DNA of 64,000 nucleotides from the IMG/VR virus record IMGVR_UViG_3300035681_000001, positions 96,001-160,000 of that record. One strand, written 5' to 3'. Positions 26,330 to 55,231 of the stretch are shown here, one piece after another. The position numbers were made by a program, and so were the translations under genes. Origin of the DNA: a virus. The notes beneath the pieces were generated by a model. It searched no databases, was not told where the DNA came from, and was given only the letters and a program-made list of their open reading frames with translations. Positions within the stretch are counted from its first letter, which is position 1. Each line of letters begins with the position of its first letter.

Positions 26330-26769
26330 GCTACCGCCGAACTAAGTAAAAACCCTAAAGAACAATGAGTCTCACTAATACCACCTAGCAAATTCATACC
26401 ACCCAACGACCGAGGGTCTGTGCTGGTGGCTAAAGCCGAATTAGCTTCGTAAACAGACTTAAGAACGGCGGTGTTAGCTGTTACTAAAGCATCCAAATAA
26501 GAACCAGCAGGTAACACACCAGTCACAGGAACCAAAGTAGTTAGTTCACTCAACAACGCCAAAGTCGCGGGCGCCCGTACACCTACACCCCTAAGGTACT
26601 CAGCCAAACGGTCTACGTTAGCATAAGACTCTTTGTAAACCCGGTCATACAACAAGTGGTGCGCGTAGAAATTAGAACCGGAGGTGTTCCAGTGCGCGTT
26701 CGAAGCCAACAACGCAAAAGAATAAACATCAGCAAACGCAGTTAACAGCTCAGACACTAGCAGTAACAC
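26326..26769 (-). CDS. dps: Dps-family ferritin-like DNA protection protein
   Basis: 'AHWNTSGSNFYAHHLLYDRVY..VDRLAEYLRGVG' fits the Dps signature HWN-x-x-G-x-x-F-x-x-x-H...D-x-x-AE-x-x-R-x-x-G. Confidence 0.9.
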   Translation of the reverse strand: MLLLVSELLTAFADVYSFALLASNAHWNTSGSNFYAHHLLYDRVYKESYANVDRLAEYLRGVGVRAPATLALLSELTTLVPVTGVLPAGSYLDALVTANTAVLKSVYEANSALATSTDPRSLGGMNLLGGISETHCSLGFLLSSAVA

Positions 26770-26905
26770 GAACGATACCAGTTTACTACGGGGCTAACCC
26801 AAAAAGAAAAAAAGAATAGCCAAAATTACGTAAAAAACCAAAACCCAAAACCCAACCCAAAACCCCCACTTAGGGTTTAAAGCCCAGAATAGGAAAACTA
26901 AGTGG

Positions 26906-27043
26906 AAAAATCCGAAATGGAAAAAATGGTGCGCGGGAAAACGTGAAATGGATTAAAGATTAAAAAATCCGAAATTTGGAAAAAATGGTGCGCAGGAAAA
27001 TCTGGTAAAAACCGAAATTTGGAAAAAATAGTGCGCGGGAAAA
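26906..27043. repeat. Three ~37-bp imperfect direct repeats AAAAA(T)CCGAAAT(TT)GGAAAAAAT(G/A)GTGCGC(G/A)GGAAAA
   Basis: Copies at about 26906-26941, 26962-27000 and 27007-27043, in the gap between the minus-strand virion genes and the plus-strand cassette array. Confidence 0.9.
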
Positions 27044-27108
27044 TTAGTCTGTTATAGGTGTAACACCCTAGCGTTTCAGTCTTAGTGACTTAATCAGGTG
27101 TTAGTACA

Positions 27109-27142
27109 CCCCCCGACAACTACCTAGTCGGGGGTTTTTTTG
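27109..27142 (+). promoter_or_regulatory. Hairpin/T-tract/G element, copy 1
   Basis: CCCCCGAC..GTCGGGGG TTTTTTT G, then GTGGG..CCCAC, GGAG; ATG at 27173. Confidence 0.8.
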
Positions 27143-27172
27143 TGGGCTTCTTACTACACCCACGGAGTTAAC

Positions 27173-27370
27173 ATGACCAAGACTGCTGTCTTGTTTGCCC
27201 TTGCAGCTCTCTTTGGAGGGCTGTTAATGGGAAGGGCTTCGGCCCCTCAACCTTTCAGTACCGAGGAAACTCGGTACTGCAAGGAATCCTTGCGTACTGC
27301 AAGGACGGAGCAAAAGCTCCGCAAGGCCTTAGTGGAGGCCTTGACTCCCTTAGGAGTTGAGGTCCAGTAA
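27173..27370 (+). CDS. Small membrane/secreted protein (cassette 1)
   Basis: GGAG RBS; hydrophobic N-terminus MTKTAVLFALAALFGG. Confidence 0.7.
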   Translation: MTKTAVLFALAALFGGLLMGRASAPQPFSTEETRYCKESLRTARTEQKLRKALVEALTPLGVEVQ

Positions 27371-27381
27371 CTAACTTAACT

Positions 27382-27408
27382 AAGCCCCCGGAAACGGGGG
27401 CTTTTTTG
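27382..27408 (+). promoter_or_regulatory. Hairpin/T-tract/G element, copy 2
   Basis: AAGCCCCCG GAAA CGGGGGC TTTTTT G, then GTGGG..CCCAC GGAG; ATG at 27439. Confidence 0.85.
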
Positions 27409-27438
27409 TGGGCTCTTTATTACACCCACGGAGTTACA

Positions 27439-27615
27439 ATGACCTTCACCATCGCCGTCTATTGCCAACCCGTTGGGGCCACCCCCCAACGGAGGGGCAG
27501 CCACAGTGCTGCCTCCTTTGAAGAGGCGGTCGCACTGGGCGACCAACTCGTGGCCAACTACCACGAGGTCCTCAATACTGAGGGCTACGAGGTGTATTGC
27601 GAACTCATTGAATGA
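27439..27615 (+). CDS. Small hypothetical protein (cassette 2)
   Basis: GGAG RBS; 58 aa. Confidence 0.7.
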   Translation: MTFTIAVYCQPVGATPQRRGSHSAASFEEAVALGDQLVANYHEVLNTEGYEVYCELIE

Positions 27616-27651
27616 GTTTGAGACCTAAGCAAGTCCAGTAAACTGCTTACT

Positions 27652-27678
27652 AAACCCCCTGTGAAGGGGGTTTTTTTG
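27652..27678 (+). promoter_or_regulatory. Hairpin/T-tract/G element, copy 3
   Basis: AAACCCCCT GTGA AGGGGG TTTTTTT G, then GTTC..GAAC. Confidence 0.8.
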
Positions 27679-27693
27679 TTCTGTTTCATTCTT

Positions 27694-27777
27694 ATGGAAC
27701 TCTTTTTTGGTTGTTTTGCTGCTAACCTAGCAGCCGCAGGGCTGCTAGCTGTTATTTACCTGAGGTGCCTTAGGTAA
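27694..27777 (+). CDS. 27-aa hydrophobic peptide (cassette 3; below the ORF-track cutoff)
   Basis: MELFFGCFAANLAAAGLLAVIYLRCLR* fills the space between elements 3 and 4. Confidence 0.55.
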   Translation: MELFFGCFAANLAAAGLLAVIYLRCLR

Positions 27778-27785
27778 ACTTTTTA

Positions 27786-27809
27786 CCCCCGGAAACGGGG
27801 GCTTTTTTG
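27786..27809 (+). promoter_or_regulatory. Hairpin/T-tract/G element, copy 4
   Basis: CCCCCG GAAA CGGGGG C TTTTTT G, then GTAC GTGGG..CCCAC. Confidence 0.8.
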
Positions 27810-27844
27810 TACGTGGGTCACCATACCCACACTGCTTCAAAGAC

Positions 27845-28006
27845 ATGGCTGATTTCCAGATCGTCATCACCCCCTGGGGTGAAGCAAAAGTGGAGGCCTT
27901 AGGGTCTCCTGTTTTGCCCGGTTACACCGGACCGTTTACCTACCCGAAAGGGTGGGTGGTTGAGGGTGCCCTCCGGCACCTGAGGAGGTTGCACTTGATT
28001 AACTAG
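27845..28006 (+). CDS. 53-aa hypothetical protein (cassette 4; below the ORF-track cutoff)
   Basis: MADFQIVITPWGEAKVEALGSPVLPGYTGPFTYPKGWVVEGALRHLRRLHLIN*. Confidence 0.6.
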   Translation: MADFQIVITPWGEAKVEALGSPVLPGYTGPFTYPKGWVVEGALRHLRRLHLIN

Positions 28007-28012
28007 TCTAAT

Positions 28013-28039
28013 AAGCCCTCGGAAACGGGGGCTTTTTTG
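28013..28039 (+). promoter_or_regulatory. Hairpin/T-tract/G element, copy 5
   Basis: AAGCCCTCG GAAA CGGGGGC TTTTTT G, then GTGGG..CCCAC GGAGG; ATG at 28069. Confidence 0.85.
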
Positions 28040-28068
28040 TGGGCCTCGTTAACACCCACGGAGGTAAC

Positions 28069-28608
28069 ATGTCTCGCACCAGCCGCGTCAACGGCCTACG
28101 CGACGGTCGTCGTGTGCCTAAAGCCCACCAGGGTTTTAGAAAGGTTCTGAGGGCCGAAGCCCTCAATCTGGATTTTCAGGTCCAGATTGAGGAGGATGGG
28201 ACAGATCACTCCTTTGAGGAGGATTGGACAGATCAGATGTACAACTGGGAGCAGTACAACTGGGAGCAGTACAAGTTATTAAACCGTGTCATTTATGACG
28301 ACGGTTTAGTAAAACTTGAGGTTGAAGCGTATATGCCTGTAAGGCAGTTATGCCTACACCTAAACTTAACTACGTGGTGGGGTAACCACTACGTAGGGAG
28401 GGATATTATTCCCCACTGCTCCATAAAAGGTGTAATCAAGGCTTTTAGAGCCTACGTTGAAGAGCTCAAGTGCAAAGAGGTAGAAATACCTTTTTGCATA
28501 TGTCCCTACGACGAAGACGGAAAAAGGGACTACCGAGTCTGTGTGTATCAGAAATTAGGGTTTGAAATAGACCCTGATGATCCAGATTTCCTAATCTTCT
28601 GGACTTGA
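28069..28608 (+). CDS. Hypothetical protein (cassette 5)
   Basis: GGAGG RBS. The C-terminal 'KRDYRVCVYQKLGF' is weakly reminiscent of a GNAT motif B. Confidence 0.7.
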   Translation: MSRTSRVNGLRDGRRVPKAHQGFRKVLRAEALNLDFQVQIEEDGTDHSFEEDWTDQMYNWEQYNWEQYKLLNRVIYDDGLVKLEVEAYMPVRQLCLHLNLTTWWGNHYVGRDIIPHCSIKGVIKAFRAYVEELKCKEVEIPFCICPYDEDGKRDYRVCVYQKLGFEIDPDDPDFLIFWT

Positions 28609-28614
28609 TTTTAT

Positions 28615-28638
28615 ACCCCCGGAAACGGGGGTTTTTTT
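28615..28638 (+). promoter_or_regulatory. Hairpin/T-tract element, copy 6
   Basis: ACCCCCG GAAA CGGGGG TTTTTTT, then AC GTAGGT-CTAGT-ACCTAC hairpin; ATG at 28672. Confidence 0.8.
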
Positions 28639-28671
28639 ACGTAGGTCTAGTACCTACACCACTAACAAACC

Positions 28672-28890
28672 ATGGCTATCTGCAAAACCTACTGGTCCCA
28701 AGTTTCTGCTTGGGCAGAAACCCTAATATGGAAGGGGGAGGTAAAGCTCCCTACTTCATATTCAGCTGCCTTGTTAAAGGCAGACCTGCTAGTTGCTTTA
28801 AAGCAATTAGCGGGCGAGAGCCCAGTTAAGTACCGCCTGCAAAGGCGGAGGGCGCCTTACCTGCACTTTGTGCTGGAAATAAGGCGGTAA
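28672..28890 (+). CDS. Small hypothetical protein (cassette 6)
   Basis: 72-aa ORF between elements 6 and 7. Confidence 0.65.
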   Translation: MAICKTYWSQVSAWAETLIWKGEVKLPTSYSAALLKADLLVALKQLAGESPVKYRLQRRRAPYLHFVLEIRR

Positions 28891-28899
28891 TCTAACTTT

Positions 28900-28937
28900 C
28901 CCCCGGAGGGTGCCCCTGCACTCCGGGGGCTTTTTTG
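28900..28937 (+). promoter_or_regulatory. Hairpin/T-tract/G element, copy 7
   Basis: CCCCCGGAG..CTCCGGGGG C TTTTTT G, then GTG-C-TTAGC AATTCA GCTAA-CAC. Confidence 0.8.
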
Positions 28938-28977
28938 TGCTTAGCAATTCAGCTAACACTTAAGCCCTCGGAGGGTC

Positions 28978-29073
28978 ATGGTCAAATCTACTTTCGGCAA
29001 CTTTATAGCCGTACGTCGCCGTGAGCGGCGTAAGAAGCTGTGGGCTACCTTTAAGAGGTGGTTGCGCAAGTAA
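28978..29073 (+). CDS. 31-aa basic peptide (cassette 7; below the ORF-track cutoff)
   Basis: GGAGG RBS; MVKSTFGNFIAVRRRERRKKLWATFKRWLRK*. Confidence 0.6.
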   Translation: MVKSTFGNFIAVRRRERRKKLWATFKRWLRK

Positions 29074-29081
29074 CTGCCTTT

Positions 29082-29103
29082 AACCCCTACGGGGGTTTTT
29101 TTG
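29082..29103 (+). promoter_or_regulatory. Hairpin/T-tract/G element, copy 8
   Basis: AACCCC TACG GGGG TTTTTTT G, then GTGGG..CCCAC GGAGG; ATG at 29134. Confidence 0.85.
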
Positions 29104-29133
29104 TGGGCTATCGTTAACACCCACGGAGGTAAC

Positions 29134-29400
29134 ATGTCGAGACTACAGCACCGCTTCGCAGCACGGGCTTACAACCTGTGCTGCGAGGCGGAAGCCTACG
29201 GTTTCGTCAATTCGGGCTGGTTACCACCGGCTCGACTTGACGACGACCACCTCCAGGTGTGGGTTGCAACGCTTTTAGGGCGCTGCAACCACTTAGCAGA
29301 GTTCTTGCTAAGGGCTACTCTGGTTTATCCAGAGGCAGCACACACCCTTAACCGGGTACGTCGGCTGGTCAAAGACTACCGACGTGGCCACTTAGGTTAA
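29134..29400 (+). CDS. Small hypothetical protein (cassette 8)
   Basis: GGAGG RBS; 88 aa. Confidence 0.7.
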   Translation: MSRLQHRFAARAYNLCCEAEAYGFVNSGWLPPARLDDDHLQVWVATLLGRCNHLAEFLLRATLVYPEAAHTLNRVRRLVKDYRRGHLG

Positions 29401-29402
29401 CT

Positions 29403-29428
29403 AAAACCCCCGTAAGGGGGTTTTTTTG
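29403..29428 (+). promoter_or_regulatory. Hairpin/T-tract/G element, copy 9
   Basis: AAAACCCCC GTAA GGGGG TTTTTTT G, then GTGGG..CCCAC; ATG at 29459. Confidence 0.85.
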
Positions 29429-29458
29429 TGGGCCTCGTTAACACCCACTAAGCTAACC

Positions 29459-29833
29459 ATGTTCAACCTATTCCGTGCCGTTGCCGCTGATGCCTCCACC
29501 CCCATGGAAGCAATTAGTGCGCAACAGCAGCAGGACACTGTTGCTACCGAGGTCGCGTTGAAAGACGCGACTAAGATCAAGCAACAGGCAATGCTGCTAC
29601 GCAACGCAGCTGCAGACGCAAAACGTCTGCGGTTAGAGTTGCGCAAAGCCGAAAGGGTACAGGCTGAAGCCTGTGCTGAATTAGTTGCTGCTGAGGCAGA
29701 GGTTCTGGCTCTTCTTGATAGAGGGTTGGATAATCTTACTTTGGAGCCCCAAGGGACTCCAGAACCACAGGTCCCAGAACCTCAGTTGCAATTTGTAGCT
29801 GAAGACTTTCCTGCCCCGCCTGCACTGCCTTAA
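29459..29833 (+). CDS. Coiled-coil protein, paralog A (cassette 9)
   Basis: Shares 'STPMEA..LKDA..KQA.LLRNAA.DAKRLR.EL.KA..VQAEACAELV.AE' with the next gene. Confidence 0.75.
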   Translation: MFNLFRAVAADASTPMEAISAQQQQDTVATEVALKDATKIKQQAMLLRNAAADAKRLRLELRKAERVQAEACAELVAAEAEVLALLDRGLDNLTLEPQGTPEPQVPEPQLQFVAEDFPAPPALP

Positions 29834-29847
29834 TTAAGTAATCAACT

Positions 29848-29874
29848 AAGCCCCCGGAAACGGGGGCTTTTTTG
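29848..29874 (+). promoter_or_regulatory. Hairpin/T-tract/G element, copy 10
   Basis: AAGCCCCCG GAAA CGGGGGC TTTTTT G, then GTGGG..CCCAC; ATG at 29905. Confidence 0.85.
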
Positions 29875-29904
29875 TGGGCTCCGTTAACACCCACTGAGCT
29901 AATC

Positions 29905-30282
29905 ATGTTCAACTTTCGTGCCCGTGCTGCCAAGCCTACTTCCACCCCCATGGAGGCAGTGCTTGCTCAGCAAGCGGCAGATGCTGCCGGTACTGAAGCC
30001 GCGTTGAAAGACGCGGTTTCAGTAAAGAAGCAGGCCGTGTTGCTTCGCAATGCGGCAGTAGACGCAAAACGTCTGCGGGTTGAGCTATTAAAGGCTCAAA
30101 AAGTGCAGGCTGAGGCTTGTGCTGAACTGGTCTTAGCAGAGCAAGAGGTATTTGATCTTCTTAACGGAGGGTTGGATGCTCTTACTCTGCAGCAACCAGA
30201 GCAGCCAATGCCAACGCCGCCTCCACTGCCAGTGATCCAACCACTAGCAGTGGAGGACTACTTCCCTCCTAAACTTAACTAA
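29905..30282 (+). CDS. Coiled-coil protein, paralog B (cassette 10)
   Basis: Paralog of 29459..29833. Confidence 0.75.
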   Translation: MFNFRARAAKPTSTPMEAVLAQQAADAAGTEAALKDAVSVKKQAVLLRNAAVDAKRLRVELLKAQKVQAEACAELVLAEQEVFDLLNGGLDALTLQQPEQPMPTPPPLPVIQPLAVEDYFPPKLN

Positions 30283-30294
30283 AATTAAGTAACT

Positions 30295-30319
30295 AAGCCC
30301 CTTAACGGGGGCTTTTTTG
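30295..30319 (+). promoter_or_regulatory. Hairpin/T-tract/G element, copy 11
   Basis: AAGCCCCT TAAC GGGGGC TTTTTT G, followed by a structured non-coding unit instead of an ORF. Confidence 0.8.
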
Positions 30320-30430
30320 TAAGCTTTAGCTTAACCAATAAGAGCCGTTGCTCTGGCTGTGTATCGCACAGGTTGGTTAAGTTAAAGCTGCACCCCCTAA
30401 ACGTGCTAGCACATACGGGGGAAACTACTA
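30319..30430 (+). ncRNA. Candidate structured small RNA (three-way junction plus 3' hairpin) occupying cassette 11
   Basis: AGCTTTAGCTTAACCAA (30322) pairs with TTGGTTAAGTTAAAGCT (to 30389; one G-U pair), enclosing AGAGC-CGTT-GCTCT and CTGTG-TATCG-CACAG. A CCCCC..GTGCTAGCAC..GGGGG hairpin follows. Confidence 0.55.
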
Positions 30431-30471
30431 CTACTTATTAGTACACGGGGGCAAGTTTATAACCTTAACGT

Positions 30472-30496
30472 ACATCCGGAAACGGGGGTTTTTTTG
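30472..30496 (+). promoter_or_regulatory. Hairpin/T-tract/G element, copy 12 (weakened left arm)
   Basis: ACATCCG GAAA CGGGGG TTTTTTT G, then CCTGGC AATTCA GCTAGG; ATG at 30527. Confidence 0.75.
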
Positions 30497-30526
30497 TCCT
30501 GGCAATTCAGCTAGGCGTTAACACCC

Positions 30527-32368
30527 ATGGTTAAAATGACCCGCACCCGCCGCCAAGCAACTGCAGCTAAGGCTGCACGCATCAAAGCCTCCCAAGTTAA
30601 AAGTGCACGTCGTGCACTCCAGTTGCAATTTGACTACTACAACTTTGAATTAGTAACTGCAGGCAAAGCTGCGGTTGCATGGAACGAATCTGGAAAAGCT
30701 ACACCTATAAAATTTGTTACCGGTACCGGTACCAGCCAAGCTTCTGGTTGGTACCAAGAAGCTTGTACCAAAGCTGCTGCGGTAGCAGCGGAAGCTGTTG
30801 CTAGAACAGCACGTAAAACTGAACAAGCGGCACGTGCTCCTTGGGAGCAGCTTTGGGTGCTGCTTAAAGCTCAATATGGGCTGCAATTCAGTATTACTGC
30901 TGCTGAGTGGGAATCCCGGCAGTTAGATGCTGCTAAAGCTAAAGCTTTAGGACTTAGGTCTCCTAAACTTTCAAAAGCCCTAGTAGCTTTAGGGGTACCT
31001 ACCTCAGAAGTCTCCTTATTGTTAGGAGCTACTAAAACGGCGGTAACAGCTGCCGCAACTAACACAGACACTTGGGTGTCTAGTGATCTTAAAGACCTGT
31101 GGGATCAAGGCAATTCTAAACACTACTCAAGCTGTCAAGCTACTGACAGCCGTGCGGCTTGGGGTGGTGATACAAATTGGTGTGACATAGCTGCAGAAAC
31201 TAAGCACCTAGGTCAGCACCTGTTCTTATGGCTAATAGGCCAGAGGATGTCCATAGATGGCACCGGTTTTACGGCACGTGCTAAATTACGCGTGCTGTAT
31301 TATGACGAGGAGGCTACCGAGATAGCTGGTCTTTACATAGACCGCCCTTACGGAGCAGCGAGTACGTTAAAAGCTGGGTTAGCTCAGCTAGCTGAGTGGT
31401 GGGCTACTCGCAGCCACACTCCTATCTTTATGCCCACTACGTGGGAACGCCGAGACGGTGCCGGCAATGACTTTCAGTACCAATATGGTGGGCTACACGA
31501 GGAAAAACTATATTCACCCTCATCAACCTCAGGCTACCAGGACACCTGCACGCAGGGTGCCGGACCTTACGACTTTATGGTGCCAGTAGCACAACACGGC
31601 AGCCTTATACGGCGTGCTTTTACCGCACGTCCCAAAGAAGGTAACGTGTACCTACTGCCCCTAGCAGCAGTTAAGTACAACCCTCAAACTGATAAGTTTA
31701 CGGTACCTAAAGTGGCTACTAGGTCAGCACGGAGGCCTATTACGGAATCCTACCGCTATGTACGTAGTTTAGCTGTCAGCCTTGGGCTAACCGACTTTAA
31801 ATATGTTGGACAACAAGGAGTCGGCTATGGCACTCCTACCACTATTTACCAAGCAGGTAGTTATAAGTTTTTCGTCAACAAGAACTTAATACAACTAACT
31901 GATGACATGGGCCACACTACATACTGTGAGTGGGAAGAAGGAAGGCTGACAGTAAAAGAAGGTAATGTAGAATTAGGCTTAGTAATATCACAATCCTTAC
32001 CTTACGATTATAACGCTTCAGAGCGGTCCTTAACGGTATCAGCAGAAGAGTATTGGTGTCCAGATGTAGTCCGGGACTATGGATTTATGAAAGCTGAAGA
32101 ACTACCTTATACGCACGATAGTAAAGAACTTAGAGTGGTATCAGAGACTGGGGATTTTGAACTAGCAATAGAGCTACAGTACACCTGTAGTCCTGGACTA
32201 CTAGTAGTAGTACACGAGCCCATAGGATGGTATAAAGCAGTGGCTTTAGATAAAAGTAATATATCAGCTAATGTAGGTCACGTCTACATTAAAGACCACG
32301 AAGATTTTCTAGTGTATCATAAGCTTTTATGGGCAGAAAAGGATATTTTGTGGTGGAACTATAGATAG
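30527..32368 (+). CDS. Large hypothetical early protein (613 aa)
   Basis: Basic N-terminus; central 'SSDLKDLWDQGNSKHYSSCQ' and 'KLRVLY..YIDRPYG'. Function not assigned. Confidence 0.75.
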   Translation: MVKMTRTRRQATAAKAARIKASQVKSARRALQLQFDYYNFELVTAGKAAVAWNESGKATPIKFVTGTGTSQASGWYQEACTKAAAVAAEAVARTARKTEQAARAPWEQLWVLLKAQYGLQFSITAAEWESRQLDAAKAKALGLRSPKLSKALVALGVPTSEVSLLLGATKTAVTAAATNTDTWVSSDLKDLWDQGNSKHYSSCQATDSRAAWGGDTNWCDIAAETKHLGQHLFLWLIGQRMSIDGTGFTARAKLRVLYYDEEATEIAGLYIDRPYGAASTLKAGLAQLAEWWATRSHTPIFMPTTWERRDGAGNDFQYQYGGLHEEKLYSPSSTSGYQDTCTQGAGPYDFMVPVAQHGSLIRRAFTARPKEGNVYLLPLAAVKYNPQTDKFTVPKVATRSARRPITESYRYVRSLAVSLGLTDFKYVGQQGVGYGTPTTIYQAGSYKFFVNKNLIQLTDDMGHTTYCEWEEGRLTVKEGNVELGLVISQSLPYDYNASERSLTVSAEEYWCPDVVRDYGFMKAEELPYTHDSKELRVVSETGDFELAIELQYTCSPGLLVVVHEPIGWYKAVALDKSNISANVGHVYIKDHEDFLVYHKLLWAEKDILWWNYR

Positions 32369-32389
32369 AAATTCTAAGTTAGCTTTACC

Positions 32390-32417
32390 AGCCCCCTCTT
32401 AGGAGGGGGCTTTTTTG
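32390..32417 (+). promoter_or_regulatory. Hairpin/T-tract/G element, copy 13
   Basis: AGCCCCCTC TTAG GAGGGGGC TTTTTT G, then GTCTTAGC AATTCA GCTAGGAT. Confidence 0.85.
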
Positions 32418-32454
32418 TCTTAGCAATTCAGCTAGGATTTTCGCCTCGCAAAAC

Positions 32455-33030
32455 ATGTTCGAGACTACTCGCATTGAACAGCTTGTAAAGAGCACAGACT
32501 ACCGCTTTTACATTCAGGACCACCACAACGTTTTGGTGTGGTGCTTGGGGCAAGGAGAAGACTCAGATACTAGTTACGGTGGTGAGTCTTTAGAGTCTGC
32601 CTTAGAATGCTATAACGCTAGTTTAAAAGCTGAATGGCAACCTACCCAAGCTCTTAGCTTGCTGGCCAGCGACGTACAGCTGGTACGAATGGATTTACCA
32701 ATAAACACAGCGTATCAATCGGAGATAGATTTTCTCCTAAACCTGGAGAGTATAATAGGTACTGAGATGATGAAGGAAGATAATGAACCTGCGGCTGCTT
32801 TTAAGAAAACTCATCGTATTGAAGCTGCCGCTGTCGCGTTGCAAAGAGGTAAAGTTGTAAGGGTCCGCAAAGGAGACTTAGGTTCAAAAGTAGGTACAGA
32901 ATTACAAAGACTTAAAGTAGAAATTGAGAGGCTCCTTGTTAACAATGAGTCAAGTAACGTTGAAGATAAATGGAGGCTAAGCATAGCTCCTAGCCAAGGT
33001 GATTATCTATTGAGAGCCCGCCGCGTTTGA
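32455..33030 (+). CDS. Hypothetical protein (cassette 13)
   Basis: 191-aa ORF between elements 13 and 14. Confidence 0.7.
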   Translation: MFETTRIEQLVKSTDYRFYIQDHHNVLVWCLGQGEDSDTSYGGESLESALECYNASLKAEWQPTQALSLLASDVQLVRMDLPINTAYQSEIDFLLNLESIIGTEMMKEDNEPAAAFKKTHRIEAAAVALQRGKVVRVRKGDLGSKVGTELQRLKVEIERLLVNNESSNVEDKWRLSIAPSQGDYLLRARRV

Positions 33031-33041
33031 GTAGTTAAATT

Positions 33042-33068
33042 AAGCCCCCTTAACCGGGGGCTTTTTTG
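33042..33068 (+). promoter_or_regulatory. Hairpin/T-tract/G element, copy 14
   Basis: AAGCCCCC TTAACC GGGGGC TTTTTT G, then GTGC-TTCG-GCAT. Confidence 0.85.
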
Positions 33069-33125
33069 TGCTTCGGCATAGTGGTACCTAGCGCACTATA
33101 AAATGCTGGGTTTGCCTCAAAAAAA

Positions 33126-33653
33126 ATGAGCTCCACTAAAGATGCAGTCAAAGCCACCATTAAGTGGTTGGTTACAGAAACACCCAACCAGCCCCCGTGC
33201 TGGGTTAGGGCCACAGCCGCAGTAGTAGCACTGTTGGCTACTTACGGCATTTTAGCTTATGAGTTTATTGCTGAAGTCTGGTCCTTAGGAGTAGAAGGCT
33301 TATATGACCTAAACGATATACTGGCCGAACATTGGGTTAGCTGGTGGTGCCCTGGTTACGTAAAAGCAATAGAAACTCCAGTAAAACCTACGGTTGAGGT
33401 TACTACTAAATTTGTGGTAAAAGCTGTGGTAAAAGCTATAGAAACCGTAGTAGTAAGTGAAGTAAGTGAAGTAAGTGAAGTAAGTGAAGTAGCTACAGTA
33501 GAAACCAAGTTAGCTGAAGTAGCTGAAGTAGCTGAAGTCAAGGCAACAGCTCCCGCACCTACTGAAATCTTAGGAGAAATGGTAGATATTTTTAGTGTGA
33601 GTGCTACGCCTAACCGGGCTACTCGCCGCCGCCGCAGCCGCACCACTAAGTAA
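33126..33653 (+). CDS. Membrane-anchored low-complexity protein
   Basis: One hydrophobic segment; (VSE)4 and (AEV)3 repeats encoded by 9-nt tandem repeats; Arg-rich tail. Confidence 0.65.
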   Translation: MSSTKDAVKATIKWLVTETPNQPPCWVRATAAVVALLATYGILAYEFIAEVWSLGVEGLYDLNDILAEHWVSWWCPGYVKAIETPVKPTVEVTTKFVVKAVVKAIETVVVSEVSEVSEVSEVATVETKLAEVAEVAEVKATAPAPTEILGEMVDIFSVSATPNRATRRRRSRTTK

Positions 33654-33830
33654 TCTCTCAGCGCCGGCCGGACAGGCGCTATACAAATTAGATCACACCT
33701 ACTAGTAGGGCCGGCAGCTGTGTTAAGGGACTATGAAATGAGTTACCTAGACAGTCCAGCTACAAGTCTTGCACGTGCTAGTGCAAGACTTGAAACACTC
33801 ACCCAACCCCCTCAACTCACCAACCCCCTC

Positions 33831-36800
33831 ATGAACACCGCCACCACAGCAAAAAACAAAGAAAACCAAAAAGGTAACGAAAAGACCATGCCCCAAGTGG
33901 TATTCAAGTTCTACCACCACGAGGTTAATCCAGAAGCCACCAAAGTGGCAATTCTGGCGCCAGGCCATGCTGCTGGTCCGGTGAACGCTAATGTGCCAGT
34001 TAACTTTGATACCGGCCACCTGGACAAGGCATGGGATACCATGAACCTACAAGGGGTCAACCGCCGTATTGACTGGCAAGGTACTCGCCTGGGTGCTGGA
34101 TCTGCTCAGTTCCGCGAAACTGACGGTAGTTTTAGTCCGGTAGTGTGGTCCTCGACACCCCGCACACGTAACTTGCGTGCGCCGGTGCAACTACTGTTGG
34201 CAACTTTAGTGGGAGGTCAACCTGATTGGGTAACGGGTGCGGTACCTTCTGGAAACGATGCTGCTATTCGGCAGCACGTAGCGGCAGCTATAGCTGCAGG
34301 TAAGTCACATGACTACTCGCAACACGGCTTCAGTTTGGAAGCCTACGTGTCTTTGAGTGAGATCCTAGCTCAACCTGGAGCTATACACCCTGTAACTGGA
34401 GCACCTACCGGGCGGCATTGGTTTGGTGTAATAGGTCAAGTTTACTCCATGGATACTTGTACCACTGGCGGTGCAGTACAAACGCGCTACAACTGTAGTG
34501 CATTTGATTTGTATTACTTGCCAGAGCCTGAATTCGGGCACAGTTCTTTAACACCACTCGACCCTTACGGTAAGTTAAATTTGTACGAGTCTTTGACTTA
34601 CGTACCCGAAGCCAAGGTGCTGCCCACTACTACGGTGGTGCTGCCTGCCGTACCTACGGCAGTACCTACTGCCGTACCTACTGCCGTAGGTAGTACCACA
34701 GTGTCAACTGCTGACACGCGTCGGTACTGGAATAGCTTTGGTATTCACGGTCTGCAGGTGCAGGAAATAACAGTAGATTCAGTAGTCCACGACTTTGATC
34801 TGATCAATAATTTTGAGGGCTGGAGTGAAATCCAATCTTTATTCCGTCTAGACGGCAGCGCGGCAGCTGCTGCAGTAACCGTTGCTGATGCAGCGCGGTA
34901 TTGGGTGTCCAAGAAGATGTATGGGAGTTACCAAAAAATAGGCGACCTAGCAGCCTACGAATGGACTGTTGCAGACTTGAAAGACTTGATCGAAATCATT
35001 GTAAAAGTGGGTACCAGCCGTGGCCTTGACGCTGACCACTTACCCTGTTGGTCTGGTGAGATGCTGCAGTTTGGGGCCGGCGGTCCTGCCTTTAAGGTGC
35101 TAGATAAGCGTATATATGACTACCGTGGGCGGTTGTTGCAAAACGTAGTAGAGCTAAAGGTTAGCTCCCACGTAAACGAATCAGGTCGGATGGAGTATAC
35201 CCTAGATGGTCTCCAGCAGGTCTCCAGTGCTACCCAGCTGCTTAAGTTGGTGTATTTCGGCTACTTGCCGCTATTAGCTCAGTCCATTACACAAGTAATG
35301 GACGCACTACCTGCAAACTTTAGTGAGTTTTGTAGGAATGCCTGGGTAGGAGCTAACCTAGTTAGTTGGTCGAAAGACCAAGTACTAGAACAAAACTCCG
35401 CCGCACGGCTGCGGATGGATAACTGCTATCCGATGACTATACGTCAGCCATATAGCCCGTTGAGCGGATCCTATTGGGTTCGCCTTAACGAAGACGGCCG
35501 CTTTGCGGCTAACTTAGTTAGCCACTACGAGAAACAAATCCGGTACTCCTCCAAAGAGTGTTCGGATTTGTTTAAAGAAGCCATTCGAGTAGCTTACCGT
35601 GAAGGTGGTCTAGACTACCGCTTTGACAAAAAGCTGTTAGTTGGTGGTGGCTTAGGTGCTGTAAACTGCCGGCTGTTGGCAGCTAATGACCCTGCAGCTT
35701 TTGCTGCTTTGCAGGCTAAGTTTGGGGTTACTGAGAGCTCAGTGCTATCTGGCACCCTGAAACTAGCTAAGGGTCTAAAGCGGCTGTTTTTGTCAATGGC
35801 ACAATCAGTGCCTGTCAAAGGTGCACTCCCAGCTGGGTTCTTGTTTAGAGGCCAAGAGTCTCCTGTGGAAGGGTTTTTGGCAGCAGTAGCATTAGCACCT
35901 ACTGTGGTGTTTACACCCGGTATGTCTGCCAGCGTAGGTGCTAAACCTGTAGCTGAAGTACGTAAGACCGTTAGGAATTACGTATTGCACTCTTTTGGCA
36001 CTGAACCTGAGTTCTTGATGGGCTTAGGGTGTGCTATCAAGCCTAACAACGTAGTTACTGAAACTACGCTGGGGATCACCCGTTATACGCTGGTAAGACC
36101 CACACCCATCAAGCCTAATGATTTACTGATACAAGTCGCTAACCCTAGTGGCTCAGTAAATGATGTAGTAAACACCTCTACATTTGAGGGTGATCTACAG
36201 TGGCTGGAATGGCAAGTCGTTCCTAGTATGCTGCCAGGGCAGACAGAGCTTAAACTCAGTTGGGAATTCCTAACTTACGAGAGCGATATGAAAGCTCGCT
36301 CGATTGCTAAAGCGCTGCTGGTAGACGTTAATCCAGACGTAATATTCGCTCATAATAAAGACCTAGGTGATGTAGACATCATCCACTTCCAAGACTCTTT
36401 GAAGGTGGATTTGTGGTGGTCTTACCTGATGTGTGCTGGGACTACCTTACGTTACAACTGGGATAAGCCTGAAGTAGCAGAACTCCGCCGGTTGGCGGTA
36501 GCCATTAACTCTAGGTTTGGGTTTGCAGCCTTTCAAGGCATACTAATAGACCCCGTGCATATAGCACTAGGTCACTACGACGCGTTCCAAGCTGAGTTCC
36601 GTAGGCTTTTCAGTCGGCCATTGTGGTTTAAGTTCGCTCAACTAGCCGAGTTCGGGCGTTTGTTATATGACATGCACCAGTCAGACCAATACGAACGGGT
36701 GGACTTGGGTGACGGTTACGAAAGTTACGTCACTAAAGGTGCTGACCCTAACGCACCAGACACCAACATCACCTCTTTTGTGGTGGAGTCCGGTACCGTC

Positions 36801-39800
36801 ACCGAAATCTGGCAGCGCGGGATGTGTCTAGTAGGCACTGAAACCTGCCCGGTTTATAACGTGGAACTCTTCGAGTCTACTACACCTAAAGAAAACGTAG
36901 GTGAGTCCTGGCAGTTCCCTTCAGAGCTGCGTGCACTGCAGTCCATCACCAGCAATGGTGTAAACCCTAAAGCGTTGGATGAGCTCACCAACACGATAAA
37001 AGCAGACATCCTGCCTAATTTGGCTATGGCTAAAATCCTGGAAGGGATGGCTAGCGGTAGTCTACTCGGAGGTAAGCGCACCATAGCAGTAGAAGCTGCA
37101 GCCGACGGGCACTACCAAGTATCTACTGCAGTGCACGCCCGGTTGCAGCAAATAGTAGCAGAACTAGGTGTAAACCTAGCCGCACCCGCAGAAGCTTTTG
37201 AAAAGCTGTCTGTAAGACTAAAAGACGTAGTCTTTACCTTTAAGGTGTCTGGCAAAGAGACCAGCATTTGGCTTCCTGCATTGTGGGAACTCAATAAGCT
37301 GCGTTCTACCAACGAGTCTGGGCAAACTTTGTCCAGTGTGTTCTACCGTTATTTCTTAGTGCCGCTGTGTCTCAACAACCACGTTGAAGCTGCAGTAGTA
37401 ATAAGACTTCGCGGTCAGCTTAGTTCGTTGTTGTACTCTAGCGAAACACCTAAGCTGCTGAAAGGCCGCACTAAAATAGGTGGTCGCCGTGTAGGTTTAC
37501 CTTGTATCCCCATAAGTGAAACTTGGGTGTTGTATTCAGATGACCCGAGTTCTGAGTACCAAAACGCACTGCAGTATTGCCGGCGTGCATCGTTAAACCT
37601 AGAAATAGGCCTTAACGACCACTTGGTCGGTTACAACTCACGTGCACCACTAGCAGCTGGCTGGTTGTCTAAACTGCGTGTGATTACACCTGCAGAAAAC
37701 ACCAGTAACTATTGGCAACTGAGCCCTTACTATTTGGGTATCAGTCCAGTAGCGCTGTACATAGACGGTGGTGATTGTGACGGTGACTCAGGCTATTGGG
37801 CTGAACAAGGACCTGAGTTTGAGAGTGAAATCCTGGACTACCAAACCGTTATAAATATCCGCAATGCGGGTATGGATGGCGACTGTCGGTATACAGGTAG
37901 TTACGCTTACGCGCACTACACGCGTAAGGATTGGGCTAAAGCTACCGTAACTATGTCTTCGGGAGTTATCAGTGGGTGTGTAATGACAGAAGAGCAGTAT
38001 TGCTCTTATAACGTCGGTGCACACATCGTACAACACGAAGCTGTCGGGTCCAGCTATAAGCTGTACATGCTAGGTGAACACTTGATTGACTGTGCTCAAG
38101 CTTATGAAAAACTAGGCATTGAGTGTGAGTTGTTGAAGCCCTTTATGGGTGCTCTAGCACCTAGTTTGGTGCTGATACTGGCAGAAATCTACGAGACTAT
38201 TCTCGGCGGTTTTACTCCAGAAGCACTGGAGTTGTTTGAAAGCTACCTCAAACCGGCTATCAAACAAGGTAAGCCTATCGCACTTAAGCAGCTTACTGAT
38301 TTTCGTAAGTTGCTGGAGCGCTTTGGAGCTAACTCTTTAAGAGCTGAGGAAATCCTAAAGTTGATCAATGTGATCTCTTTAGTAGCTGCCAGTGAAGTCA
38401 ACGGGTATCTGTCCCGTGAATACACTGGTTGGGATGGCCTAGCTTTAAGTGCAGCTCATGTTGTATTCGAGCTGGGTCGCGGTCGCTTTCACGGTATGTC
38501 AGCCTTTACTAAAGGTCAAATGCCTCAAACGCGTCAAGCGTTAGGGCAAAAAGCCGCACTAGTTAAGTTCTACGAACTGCTGCTAGGTGGACTGCAGACT
38601 AACCGTGAGTTGTACCACCGCTTATCGGAGACTTCTTCAGTAATAGGTTGCGGTAGGGTGCTGTTCAAGCACCTGCACGTAGAACTCGGGTTGATTAGTT
38701 CTAATTATCCCTGGTTGCGTCCAAACCTAACAGAACTGCAATGGCTTCCAGAAGTCTTTGAGCAGTTTAAGTGCTGTCAGCTTGCACCAGCTACTACCGA
38801 ACTTACTGAGACTACAACCGAAATTACAGTTGAAGCTACTACTGTAGCTACACCTGAACCTACTACTGCTACTACTACTAAACCTATTACAGTTCAAGTT
38901 ACACCGGAACCTACGTCAGCCGCACTACTTGAAACACTAAAGAAAAGTGTTTTATTTGAGCTTTGTGCTGAGCGTGGTCTTACAGTAGCCAAAAAAGCTA
39001 CCAAAGAGCAGTTGGTAAGCGCTTTACTAACTGACCCTAACGGACCACCCTCAGAGGCTTTAGTTATTGAGGTTTCACAAGACCCGGCAACTAAAGCTCT
39101 GAAGCAACGTATTGCTGAACTAGAAGCTCAAGTTGCCCAACTGGAGGCTCAAGTTACGCAAGACCCAGAAGATCCTGAAGAGCCACTCGCTGTAGTGTCT
39201 AAACCTAAACCGGACCCCAAACCTGATTCAGGTGCTGGGACAAGCGAACCCACCACACCCATTGCACCCGCTACCATGTCCGCTACATCAACGGCAGTCA
39301 ACGTACCTGCAGGTATGCCGGCTGACCTAACACCTTCTCAGATTAGAGCGTTTGAGTTGTTTCAACAAGGCCACAATTTGGTCATCACTGGAGCAGCAGG
39401 TACAGGTAAAACCTACCTTAGTAACTTGCTTAGGGAATACGCCCTTAAGAAAAACTACAAACTAGTAGTAGTAGGTTCCACAGGCACTTCGGTACTAAAT
39501 ATCAAAGGTGACGGCACCCTTAACTCCGTATTTGGGTTGGGTCTAGGTTTTAGTGGTAAACGCCCTTCGGGGCTAGAGGCCGACAGTTTACTAGCTGCTT
39601 CCAGAAGATCCCAGATTTGTAACGAGTACTTAGCGCTTACTGATGAAGCTGGTTTGATAATACTGGTAGACGAAGTAAGCATGGTAGATACTAAACTAGC
39701 TCGCCTAACGTGGGATATCACAGCACTACAAAACCACCCTACTCAGTGGGTGTTGATAGGCGATCCAGGACAGTGTACTCCTCCAGGAGGAGAGCTGTTC

Positions 39801-41382: not shown

Positions 41383-41522
41383 ATGGCCAGCCGGGAGCCT
41401 GTCCCGGCAACTCCCCACTGCCAATTACAATCAAGCCACAGGACAACTTCCGCTCTATTGGGGGCTCAACTTTTTGCTCAATTTGCAGTAAGTCATTTTG
41501 ATAAAACTGAAAACTGGGACGT

Positions 41523-42820: not shown

Positions 42821-43117
42821 ATGAACACTCCTGAACTAACGTGGGAATCTCGGCAAACCAGATATAGTAATACAGTTAAAACCTACAGAGATGACGGCCT
42901 TTGGTTAGCAGTACGTTTTAAAATCAATCAAGGTTGTTTGTCCTCTTCTGTTAAGACATACAAAACCGACACTTTACTAAACGAAATAAACCTTGATATG
43001 GGTAAGTTTAGTTCTGACGAAGGGGCCAAACTTTTCGCCCAGTTTGCAGTAAGTCATTTTGATAAAACTGAAAACTGGGACGTATGTCCTAACTTAAAAG
43101 TCATTAGTATCTACTAA
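42821..43117 (+). CDS. Hypothetical protein
   Basis: 98-aa ORF whose 3' end is duplicated at 41461-41530. Confidence 0.65.
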   Translation: MNTPELTWESRQTRYSNTVKTYRDDGLWLAVRFKINQGCLSSSVKTYKTDTLLNEINLDMGKFSSDEGAKLFAQFAVSHFDKTENWDVCPNLKVISIY

Positions 43118-46050: not shown

Positions 46051-46076
46051 AGCCCCCTTAACCGGGGGCTTTTTTT
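46051..46076 (+). terminator. Intrinsic terminator (same hairpin as element 14, without the following G/hairpin)
   Basis: AGCCCCC TTAACC GGGGGC TTTTTTT AAAT. Confidence 0.8.
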
Positions 46077-55183: not shown

Positions 55184-55228
55184 CCCACTAATCCCACTAA
55201 TCCCACTAATCCCACTAATCCCACTAAT
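55184..55228. repeat. Tandem 9-mer CCCACTAAT x5
   Basis: Ends 3 nt before ATG 55232. Confidence 0.95.
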
Positions 55229-55231
55229 CCA

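Follow-up and report, generated by a model that had tools for sequence, protein, structure and literature searches.

A 6-kb array in the genome of an uncultured phage (189,763 bp, from which a 64,000-nt window was analysed) places a hairpin and a T-tract at the boundaries of a row of small units, and raises the question of whether such an element only ends the unit upstream or also begins the next one. A preliminary description had listed 14 copies of a hairpin followed by T6-7 and a second hairpin, and had proposed that each both terminates the upstream gene and acts as an N4-like promoter or a processing site, with the G after the tract as an RNA 5′ end. The observation itself is confirmed and was extended to 75 distinct copies from 9 loci in seven related uncultured phages (74 copies measurable; polymerase gene identity among the relatives sampled, 36-66%), while the interpretation is partly supported, with the promoter role putative. 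Each boundary element consists of a terminator hairpin and the covarying leader hairpin of the next small early gene, with zero spacing between them. Our leading reading, to which we give slightly less than an even chance, is that transcription of each unit stops at U7 and that a phage polymerase begins again at the purine that follows.

Anatomy and specificity of the array

All 14 elements lie on the + strand within 6 kb, and a recount of the dinucleotide after the T-tract gave GT in 13, as first described, and AC in copy 6. The C5/G5-type stem reported before every unit is present as hairpin 1 in all 14 copies, but its 5′ arm is degenerate in copy 12.

26904..27110, + strand: array head, three tandem repeats of ~40 nt, then a conserved non-coding block of ~70 nt into element 1
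27111..27163, + strand: element 1, hairpin 1 (8-bp stem, 9-nt loop), T7 ending at 27141, hairpin 2 GTGGG..CCCAC; 5′ of the array's first gene
27382..27429, + strand: element 2, hairpin 1 (GAAA loop), CT6 ending at 27407, hairpin 2 GTGGG..CCCAC
27652..27700, + strand: element 3, hairpin 1 (GTGA loop), T7 ending at 27677, hairpin 2 GTTC..GAAC
27786..27835, + strand: element 4, hairpin 1 (GAAA loop), CT6 ending at 27808, GTAC, then hairpin GTGGGT..ACCCAC
28013..28059, + strand: element 5, hairpin 1 (T-G wobble, sense strand), CT6 ending at 28038, GTGGG..CCCAC
28615..28657, + strand: element 6, hairpin 1, T7 ending at 28638, AC (AC-type start), GTAGGT..ACCTAC
28900..28959, + strand: element 7, long hairpin 1 (outer stem 9-bp), CT6 ending at 28936, hairpin GTG-CTTAGC..GCTAA-CAC
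29082..29124, + strand: element 8, hairpin 1 (UACG loop), T7 ending at 29102, GTGGG..CCCAC
29404..29448, + strand: element 9, hairpin 1 (GUAA loop), T7 ending at 29427, GTGGG..CCCAC
29848..29894, + strand: element 10, hairpin 1 (GAAA loop), CT6 ending at 29873, GTGGG..CCCAC
30295..30318, + strand: element 11, hairpin 1 and CT6 ending at 30318; the non-coding unit is next
30461..30516, + strand: element 12, weakened hairpin 1 (5′ arm CATCC), T7 ending at 30495, hairpin GTC-CTGGC..GCTAG-GC
32390..32438, + strand: element 13, hairpin 1, CT6 ending at 32416, GTCTTAGC..GCTAGGAT including two G-U wobbles
33042..33094, + strand: element 14, hairpin 1, CT6 ending at 33067, GTGC-UUCG-GCAT or a longer stem GTGCT..AGCGC
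27173..33653, + strand: thirteen ORFs, one per unit, starting at 27173, 27439, 27694, 27845, 28069, 28672, 28978, 29134, 29459, 29905, 30527, 32455 and 33126
30319..30495, + strand: ORF-less structured RNA unit, stem of ~20 bp, z = -3.1, compensatory changes at 6 pairs

The composite of hairpin 1, T-tract and hairpin 2 is absent from the rest of the 189,763-bp genome. Just four further + strand sites in that genome have a comparable hairpin and T-run, and the GT-plus-hairpin continuation was found at none of them. With 14 copies in 6 kb against none in the rest of the 190 kb, this specificity supports a restart at each element.

Several array ORFs are kept in relatives, between which whole units are inserted, deleted or duplicated exactly at element boundaries. 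The ORF-less unit is likewise bounded exactly by two elements, beginning at the G after T-tract 11 and stopping at terminator 12, and is conserved in L053, L055 and L061. Such autonomy of the units argues for a restart, as does element 1, which stands 5′ of the first gene without an upstream + strand gene to terminate (likewise in L018 and L061). Boundary-exact exchange is also what would be seen if the repeats were recombination substrates that mainly serve cassette shuffling, as in the PeSL cassettes of T4-type phages (PMC2839356), with the transcriptional features secondary. This we consider highly improbable: recombination needs sequence identity, yet hairpin 2 stems covary and hairpin 1 loops drift. 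Structure and 7-nt spacing are kept while sequences change, which points to selection for the RNA fold and makes shuffling a by-product.

RNA signatures on both sides of the tract

Hairpin 1 with its U7 is a predicted intrinsic terminator acting at the RNA level, in line with the role that its loops had suggested. Its mean stem energy is -14 kcal/mol, tetraloops occur in 53 of 74 copies, GNRA or UNCG loops are enriched (31 of 74), and G-U wobbles are commoner on the sense strand (15 versus 4 on the other strand). Loops range from 3 to 11 nt with free sequence and stem lengths vary too, so the fixed distance to the start is kept only by the stem base: in 70/74 copies the distance from the last G of the G-run to the start is exactly 7 pyrimidines. 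The start dinucleotide is always purine-pyrimidine (GT in 63 and AC in 12 of the 75 copies), and no further upstream motif common to divergent relatives was found. Both this geometry and the terminator signatures favour a restart at the purine; counting against it, all conservation 5′ of the start is also compatible with a plain terminator.

Hairpin 2, the conserved stem of the 5′ leader, is under selection as a structure and has its anchor at the first base that follows the T-tract. The described fold-back from or near this base holds: in 9 of the 14 window copies, 5 or more uninterrupted pairs form a stem starting exactly at the first post-tract base, compared with a mean of 0.39 and a maximum of 4 in 2000 shuffles. 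Copies 4, 7 and 12 have a closing stem of 3 pairs, a bulge and an inner stem, and at copy 11 the ORF-less RNA opens with a long stem, roughly 20 pairs. The G-to-ATG distance of 30-31 nt stands for seven window copies (1, 2, 5, 8, 9, 10 and 12). In copy 3 the GTTC..GAAC hairpin 2 is present, but the copy is followed only by a 27-aa ORF, the ATG of which lies inside that hairpin.

That structure is conserved while sequence changes is weakly shown within the window because six of its hairpins 2 have identical GTGGG/CCCAC arms; it emerges strongly with the relatives. With them, the second stem, which begins at the start purine, covaries over 29 arm pairs; pair 1 is always G-C, whereas covariation is free at pairs 3-5. 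Stems reach 5 bp or more in 61% of 36 representatives, compared with 19% after arm swaps (control maximum 39%). Wobbles again favour the sense strand (17 versus 6 on the antisense strand), loops are 6 to 13 nt with sequences unrelated between classes, and the 3′ end of hairpin 2 lies 9-10 nt upstream of the AUG in 28 of 51 copies. Anchoring and covariation lend further weight to a restart at this base, and the most economical reading of the post-tract purine is that it would be an RNA 5′ end, as had been suggested for the G.

Such an end could instead be made by cleavage. One primary transcript would run from the head region through hairpin-U signals that the polymerase ignores, and an endonuclease, for example RNase E, would cut the U-tract to leave products stabilised by a 3′ and a 5′ hairpin. 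A single-stranded U-tract flanked on both sides by stable stems offers an RNase E-type enzyme a good target, hairpins 1 and 2 alike carry RNA-level signatures, and a hairpin 2 abutting the tract would give a short 5′ overhang wherever the tract is cut. The single upstream promoter required could lie in the conserved head block and its three tandem repeats, a possibility that also counts against restarts, but no promoter of known type was seen in the block. Moreover, a pure U6-7 on a G/C stem at a fixed 7 nt is a hallmark of intrinsic termination that cleavage does not need, the invariant purine-pyrimidine is given no role, and a terminator-ignoring polymerase is an unsupported assumption. Processing also has a precedent in T7 early mRNA, which is cut at intercistronic RNase III sites, a gene-by-gene punctuation that yields monocistronic RNAs with terminal hairpins; those sites, however, are double-stranded substrates without U-tracts and are not terminator-like. 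On balance, we regard read-through with processing as rather unlikely.

Antitermination seems more doubtful still. Here the elements would stop transcription from a single upstream promoter until a phage factor confers terminator resistance, and hairpin 2 would be a leader that controls translation, affects the stability of the mRNA or loads a factor, marking no RNA end. A candidate factor exists in the 31-aa peptide (ORF 28978-29073), whose arginine-rich RRRERR motif resembles the RNA-binding arm of lambda N; several array proteins begin with an Arg-rich MSRTxR, and the fixed position of hairpin 2 before the AUG would suit a leader. However, element 1 is upstream of all genes, the candidate factor's included, so nothing would be made before the factor exists. 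Fourteen terminators far exceed the number in known circuits, the diversity of hairpin 2 loops makes one RNA-binding protein unlikely, and exact anchoring at the first non-T base is left unexplained.

Promoters and polymerases

In agreement with the earlier claim that no sigma70 promoter fits after the tract, no sigma70-like site was found in any intergenic gap of the array, and the 20-kb region holds 7 such sites versus 18.4 expected. The phage does encode a polymerase of its own, as judged from a structure model.

33720..40679, + strand: gene for a 2319-aa protein, last gene of the last unit, predicted two-barrel RNA polymerase and helicase

The centre of this protein (about aa 800-1600) models as a two-barrel RNA polymerase domain (pLDDT 86, pTM 0.81) with GRRV, NSRAP and GGDCDGD motifs, and its C-terminus (aa 1870-2285) is a Pif1/Dda-type helicase; the protein is thus a two-barrel polymerase fused to a Pif1-type helicase. 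The top structural matches are all two-barrel RNA polymerases: QDE-1 (Z 10.2 across 335-380 residues), Pol II, ASFV and bacterial beta-prime (Z 9.0-9.4) and phage P74 gp62 (Z 9.1). The GRRV, NSRAP and GGDxDGD motifs are unchanged across homologues. The virion module encodes a second giant protein of 3211 aa, a candidate virion polymerase with conserved motifs such as the putatively metal-binding GDYDGD and no sequence or profile match. The phage also carries a sigma70-family gene, which means that the core polymerase of the host has a part at some stage. Absence of host-type promoters and presence of an own polymerase both favour restarts, and the elements are probably read by a phage polymerase and not by the host sigma70 holoenzyme. 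Against this stands the sigma70-family gene; moreover, the 2319-aa polymerase is encoded last and hence cannot start the programme unless packaged, and the 3211-aa protein is a candidate from conserved motifs only.

A true N4-type promoter, with hairpin 1 extruded on the template strand of supercoiled DNA, bound by a virion polymerase and followed by A7 as a ruler, is very unlikely. N4 early promoters have a 5-7 bp hairpin and then four template A residues as a ruler to +1 (PMC4496689), and the array recalls them in its short G/C hairpin, homopolymer spacer and following start; the giant protein in the virion module, with its conserved metal-binding motif, would fit as well. However, N4 has three promoters, a 4-nt spacer and a template-strand DNA hairpin with conserved stem bases and a 3-nt loop of specific purines, unlike the freely varying loops of hairpin 1. 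The sense-strand G-T wobbles become A-C mismatches on the template strand, and N4 uses a T7-type polymerase, a domain detected in neither giant protein, the verified polymerase being two-barrel. None of N4's distinguishing features was matched, and the label "N4-like" was dropped.

Proposed stopping and restarting at each element

The data show how the elements are built, that this anatomy is conserved and covaries, that it bears signatures of RNA, that sigma70 boxes are missing and which fold the polymerase has. What we infer is that transcription terminates in the array, that the purine is an RNA 5′ end, that RNA synthesis starts there, and which polymerase is at work. Hairpin 1 and seven U would end the upstream unit and leave its RNA with a hairpin-protected 3′ end. 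The next RNA would start at the purine immediately after the T-tract, its 5′ end made by re-initiation at every element, and would fold at once into a 5′-terminal stem-loop that shields it from 5′-end-dependent RNases. As the stem base is 9-10 nt upstream of the start codon in half of the copies, a short stretch would stay open for the ribosome to land on. Without restarts, passage through fourteen strong terminators one after another would let hardly any transcription reach the last gene, which is essential. Given that the G-run, 7-nt pyrimidine tract and purine-pyrimidine are the sole conserved DNA that could be a start signal, terminator and start signal would overlap.

Junctions of non-segmented negative-strand RNA viruses, which consist of a U7 gene end, a short intergenic sequence and a gene start, work similarly: U7 ends a gene, the polymerase restarts a few bases on, and one RNA is made per gene. 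Those viruses differ in their RNA template, RNA-dependent polymerase, polyadenylation by stuttering and lack of hairpins; the likeness is one of working only, and there is no evolutionary link.

Among DNA phages, the PeSL (promoter-early stem-loop) cassettes of T4-type phages (Arbiol et al. 2010, PMC2839356; Comeau et al. 2014, PMC4122927) are also composite elements that recur between the genes of an early, ORFan-rich region, in which a terminating poly-G/poly-C stem-loop precedes the next gene's signals, overlapping the promoter in some classes, and gene-plus-cassette units are swapped between relatives. However, PeSLs are about 100 bp and contain a consensus sigma70 promoter with -35/-10 boxes, which the array lacks, whereas the array abuts tract and leader hairpin with zero spacing, in a phage that is not T4-like and has its own two-barrel polymerase. 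In the Thermus phage P23-45, a two-barrel polymerase from the virion reads pre-early genes, among them that of a second polymerase, which have promoters of their own and a conserved terminator motif (PMC10770324). The array phage resembles it in a suspected giant virion polymerase of the two-barrel type, a row of short early genes with a conserved terminator motif and, in our reading, start signals of their own, and the presence of a second two-barrel polymerase gene among these genes. In P23-45, an AT-rich promoter motif and a 26-nt terminator motif are separate and experimentally mapped (PMC10770324), whereas here start and stop signals would overlap, are known from sequence alone, and the second polymerase forms one protein with a helicase.

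By analogy, the P23-45 precedent supports restarts in the array. Since the stop hairpin adjoins the next gene's leader hairpin without a spacer, stop signals may double as restart points, and the array is best explained as consecutive early transcription units, each complete in itself, in a family of uncultured cyanophages with its own two-barrel RNA polymerase or polymerases.

Genomic setting of the array

The virus contig is a single sequence of 189,763 bp with an estimated completeness of 96%, of which bases 96001–160000 form the window. Its major head protein is approximately 30% identical to the counterparts in Microcystis phage Ma-LMM01 and a Microcoleus phage, which marks it as an uncultured cyanophage distant from all cultured ones. 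Minus-strand virion genes lie to the left of the array, followed on the plus strand by a 3211-aa ORF with three smaller genes, and then by a short block on the minus strand, with a ferritin-like gene among its members. At the strand switch (26770–27110) a row of small plus-strand genes begins, which closes with a 2319-aa ORF. The features discussed here are as follows, in window coordinates unless marked as genome.

12854–22489 (+), 3211-aa ORF of the virion module
26833–26865, telomere-like (AAAACCC)n run of about five copies in the divergent intergenic region
26904–27046 (+), three tandem copies of a ~40-nt repeat (AAAAATCCGAAATTTGGAAAAAATGGTGCGCGGGAAAA type), directly ahead of the array
27040–27110, conserved ~70-nt non-coding block after these repeats, containing the palindrome GGTGTAACACC
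27111–33653 (+), array of 14 elements and small genes
28978–29073 (+), Arg-rich 31-aa peptide with RRRERR
29459–29833 and 29905–30282 (+), two neighbouring paralogous genes of 124 and 125 aa
30319–30495 (+), ORF-less unit
33452–33538 (+), in-frame 9-nt tandem repeats (AGTAAGTGA, 4.4 copies; TAGCTGAAG, 3.1 copies) within the last small unit's 175-aa gene
33720–40679 (+), gene of the 2319-aa protein
41440–41522 and 43060–43110 (+), duplicated stretch of ~55 nt (TTGCAGTAAGTCATTTTGATAAAACTGAAAACTGGGACGTATGTCCTA), the first copy at the start of the 41523 gene, the second ahead of the 43129 gene
55187–55231 (+), CCCACTAAT in five tandem copies, immediately ahead of the ORF starting at 55232
Genome 7972–8127 (+), outside the window and far from the array, sigma70 region-2 domain within a 649-aa open frame
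Genome 49444–49467 (+), outside the window, lone leader-type hairpin (GTGGGC..CCCCAC) without a G/C-stem hairpin ahead of it, with TTT before it and a Shine-Dalgarno sequence and ATG after it

The (AAAACCC)n run lies upstream of the minus-strand operon and reads, on that strand, as G3T4 repeats with TTTTTTAC at their end. It has no conserved counterpart in L018, a related 3.9-kb metagenome contig. The ~40-nt repeat is threefold in L018 too and partial in L061, another related uncultured phage sequence. The repeats and the non-coding block at the head of the array could be a promoter, an operator or an origin.

Geometry and covariation of the elements

Each element combines a hairpin with a G/C stem (hairpin 1), a T-tract and an abutting second hairpin (hairpin 2). 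All 14 elements of the preliminary description were found again, all on the plus strand, and each has a C-run/G-run stem followed by T6 or T7, with a C preceding the run when it is T6. The stem is not of the intact C5/G5 type in every copy, as had been claimed, given that copy 12 has a degenerate 5' arm. As described, GT follows the tract in 13 of the 14 copies (AC in the other one), and the first post-tract base lies 30–31 nt from the ATG in seven. The second stem does begin right after the tract: at least five uninterrupted pairs start from the first post-tract base in 9 of the 14 copies, compared with a mean of 0.39 copies, and never more than 4, in 2,000 shuffles. In copies 4, 7 and 12 a short closing stem leads through a bulge to an inner stem, and a long stem starts at copy 11. 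The composite is confined to the 6-kb array. Four hairpin/T-run lookalikes occur on the same strand in the rest of the genome, all four lacking the GT and hairpin continuation, and exact 10-mer enrichment across the genome revealed no additional promoter-like motif.

The ORF-less unit corresponds to a conserved structured RNA of ~175 nt that extends from the G after one T-tract to the next terminator; its features are a long terminal stem and a CCCCCUAAACGUGCUAGCACAUACGGGGG domain that is likewise conserved. Three relatives also have this RNA. It has no Rfam match, and an Rfam search of 26500–33800 gave no significant match. The paralogous genes of 124 and 125 aa each have their own element, a tandem cassette duplication that is represented by a single longer homologue in the relatives.

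An exact-pattern scan identified the same layout in L018, where a ferritin-like gene and three tandem repeats are followed by small genes, each with an element ahead of it. Five further short contigs were reached through homologues of a 179-aa array protein, and long syntenic contigs through homologues of the 2319-aa protein (19 proteins, 28–66% identical). The long contigs share the order giant ORF, minus-strand PAAR and ferritin-like genes, array and giant helicase-fusion gene, and between relatives whole units are inserted, lost or duplicated at elements. No relatives of the array or of the polymerase domain were found among cultured phages in DNA and protein searches, and protein-pattern scans of viral contigs with a 613-aa protein and the 2319-aa protein gave no match.

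The element set comprises 75 distinct copies from nine loci, of which 74 are measurable for tract and loop. Exactly seven pyrimidines lead from the last G of hairpin 1 to the next base in 70 of 74 elements, and the post-tract dinucleotide is always purine-pyrimidine (GT in 63, AC in 12). It had been proposed that the structure of hairpin 2 is kept while its sequence changes. Within the window this shows only weakly, with little true covariation, because six of the second hairpins there have identical sequence; with the relatives included it holds, in the form of 29 different arm pairs across the 75 elements (for example GTGGG/CCCAC, GTCTGG/CCAGAC, GTCCGG/CCGGAC, GTGCAG/CTGCAC, GTCAGG/CCTGAC, GTAGGT/ACCTAC and GCTGGC/GCCAGC). 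Pair 1 is G-C throughout, and pairs 3 to 5 vary freely with complementarity kept. In a set of 36 representatives that differ in their 5' arms, anchored stems of at least five pairs form in 61%, compared with 19% in arm-swapped controls (maximum 39% in 1,000 trials). Covariation was counted from the stem ends; a MAFFT alignment set 5-bp and 6-bp stems out of register, and a structure-pair counter was therefore left unused. The seven-pyrimidine geometry and the covarying arms indicate that the structure of hairpin 2 is under selection, as is its flush position at the T-tract. The distance from the end of hairpin 2 to the AUG is 9–10 nt in 28 of 51 copies.

Probable termination and proposed restart between units

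A stable G/C stem followed by a U-run, on the coding strand and after a stop codon, is the textbook intrinsic terminator. Hairpin 1 has stems of 5–12 bp, a mean folding energy of −14 kcal/mol and, directly after every stem, a run of T5–7 on the coding (+) strand, past the stop codons. Its loops range from 3 to 11 nt with 38 different sequences and are tetraloops in 53 of 74 cases; GNRA/UNCG loops, which had been taken to favour a terminator role at the RNA level, account for 31 of 74, far above chance, and so bear that argument out. A crude comparison of sense and antisense folding energies was uninformative and was replaced by a symmetric wobble count, in which either G-T or A-C is allowed as the tolerated pair. 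Wobbles on the sense strand outnumber those on the other strand by 15 to 4 in hairpin 1 and by 17 to 6 in hairpin 2, so both look like sense-strand (RNA) structures. Judged from sequence, hairpin 1 with U7 very likely terminates transcription. Outside the array, for instance near 46064, this type of stem is found as an ordinary terminator that lacks the GT-hairpin extension. A bidirectional terminator was rejected because the opposite strand has no T-run.

With fourteen terminators in series, virtually no transcript would reach the last unit, home of a very large conserved protein. Element 1 precedes the first gene, with no upstream plus-strand gene to terminate, and the same is true in L018 and L061. 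The units behave as autonomous modules: they come and go whole between relatives, and one of them carries a structured RNA in place of an ORF. That no sigma70 promoter follows the tract agrees with our scan, which found no sigma70-like site in any array gap and 7 such sites in the surrounding 20 kb, where 18.4 are expected. A sigma70 promoter overlapping the element was rejected because a start at the purine puts the −10 position on the G-run, GGGGG(C/T), and a −10-like reading of the TTAACAC or TACTACAC loop ends because the invariant final T is missing and the loops differ by hairpin class. We also discarded RNase P-like substrates (stems too short, ACCA after only some), integron attC sites (no R boxes, no integrase) and the idea that contigs of short public assemblies that stop at elements reveal RNA ends, given that repeats break assemblies there.

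The strict U-tract argues for real termination, which makes a restart necessary, and the invariant purine-pyrimidine pair fits a start site; together these points favour initiation. We tentatively propose, at slightly below an even chance, that every unit is a separate RNA with its 5' end made by initiation at the purine. Hairpin 1 and U7 would end one RNA, the next purine would begin the following one, and hairpin 2 would serve as a 5'-terminal protective leader on each unit's RNA. Read-through followed by cleavage in the U-tract is less likely. Less probable still is antitermination, with hairpin 2 as an internal leader: the Arg-rich 31-aa peptide is conserved in L053, a related uncultured phage sequence, and its RRRERR is the same core as in the RNA-binding arm of lambda N, but for a system of the lambda N/nut type the loops of hairpin 2 do not resemble boxB, and all genes lie behind the first terminator.

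A promoter role of the element, as initiation at the purine would involve, is plausible. The most specific form of it is a long shot: the element may be one signal with two functions, stop and start, read by a phage two-barrel RNA polymerase. RNA would be released in the U-tract, a new chain would start at the next purine without a sigma-type promoter, and the 5' hairpin would form at once and peel the new RNA off the template. In that case a DNA phage would have an equivalent of the gene junctions known from negative-strand RNA viruses.

Predicted phage polymerases and comparable known systems

The 2319-aa protein has a C-terminal Pif1/Dda-type helicase and, upstream of it, the beta-prime-barrel-like motifs LLKGRTKIGGRRV, NSRAP and GGDCDGD; GGDxDGD, NSRAP and GRRV are invariant in its homologues. 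A model of residues 800–1600 from a 25-sequence alignment reached a pLDDT of 86 and a pTM of 0.81, an earlier one from five sequences being unusable (pLDDT 50). The Foldseek top list for this model consists almost entirely of two-barrel RNA polymerases, at weak E-values. Structural re-alignment gave Z 10.2 with QDE-1 over 335–380 residues, Z 9.0–9.4 with the largest subunits of cellular, ASFV and bacterial polymerases, and Z 9.1 with phage P74 gp62. On this modelled fold we accept the protein as a predicted single-chain two-barrel RNA polymerase (QDE-1/crAss/YonO-like) joined to a helicase. At least 55 representatives of the family, 1100–4500 aa long, come from metagenomes and none from cultured phages; a protein atlas gave no usable match for the polymerase.

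The 3211-aa protein contains an invariant GDYDGD (aa 2232), R-G-P and KGP motifs as well as two HxK..N (HKD/PLD-like) motifs near its N-terminus, and its motifs are kept in homologues down to 27% identity. These conserved motifs by themselves make it a candidate virion polymerase. It gave no match at the sequence level, none in a profile comparison with the polymerase family and only weak tape-measure-like matches in the protein atlas. Neither giant protein has a Pfam RNA_pol match, and PDB-sequence profile searches with both families returned none. A genome search with PF00940 (T7-type polymerase) found no match, but its controls gave none either. The sigma70 region-2 domain in the 649-aa frame (E = 2.6e-18) suggests that the phage also redirects the host core polymerase at some stage. 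It is plausible that the array itself is read by a phage polymerase, by analogy with Thermus phage P23-45 (PMC10770324). The modelled fold brings a phage-encoded two-barrel polymerase, as in the programmes of P23-45, crAss-like phages and YonO, to this virus too.

Among known systems, the PeSL cassettes of T4-type phages come closest. They join a terminator and a promoter in one unit, have poly-G/C stems, flank ORFans and mediate shuffling; in some classes the promoter and the stem-loop overlap (PMC2839356, PMC4122927). The array elements likewise join a stem-loop terminator to signals for the next gene, are repeated between ORFans and mark shuffling breakpoints, but they lack the sigma70 promoter (−35, −10 and AT-rich upstream region) that defines PeSL. 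The N4-like label of the preliminary description has to be dropped. N4 early promoters have a stem of 5–7 bp and a 3-nt loop with specific purines and are used on the template strand (PMC4496689), whereas the loops here are 3–11 nt, mostly 4, with 38 sequences, and the wobbles lie on the sense strand, a bias that argues against a template-strand DNA hairpin function. Only the geometry of hairpin, spacer and start is common to both. What stands out against known cassettes is the zero spacing between terminator and leader, together with the lack of a recognisable promoter.

Support is good both for a terminator role and for a structured leader. T4-like phages have cassettes of terminator, promoter and leader in which a promoter can normally be read; in the present family the first base of each structured leader directly adjoins the preceding stop signal, and the element matches no known type of promoter. 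As start sites, the elements would amount to a minimal promoter for a polymerase class that has received little study, and to a new mode of overlap between the signals for stop and start. As processing sites, they would be a compact, portable module guarding both mRNA ends. Either way, 75 natural variants with strict geometry provide a ready-made mutational series.
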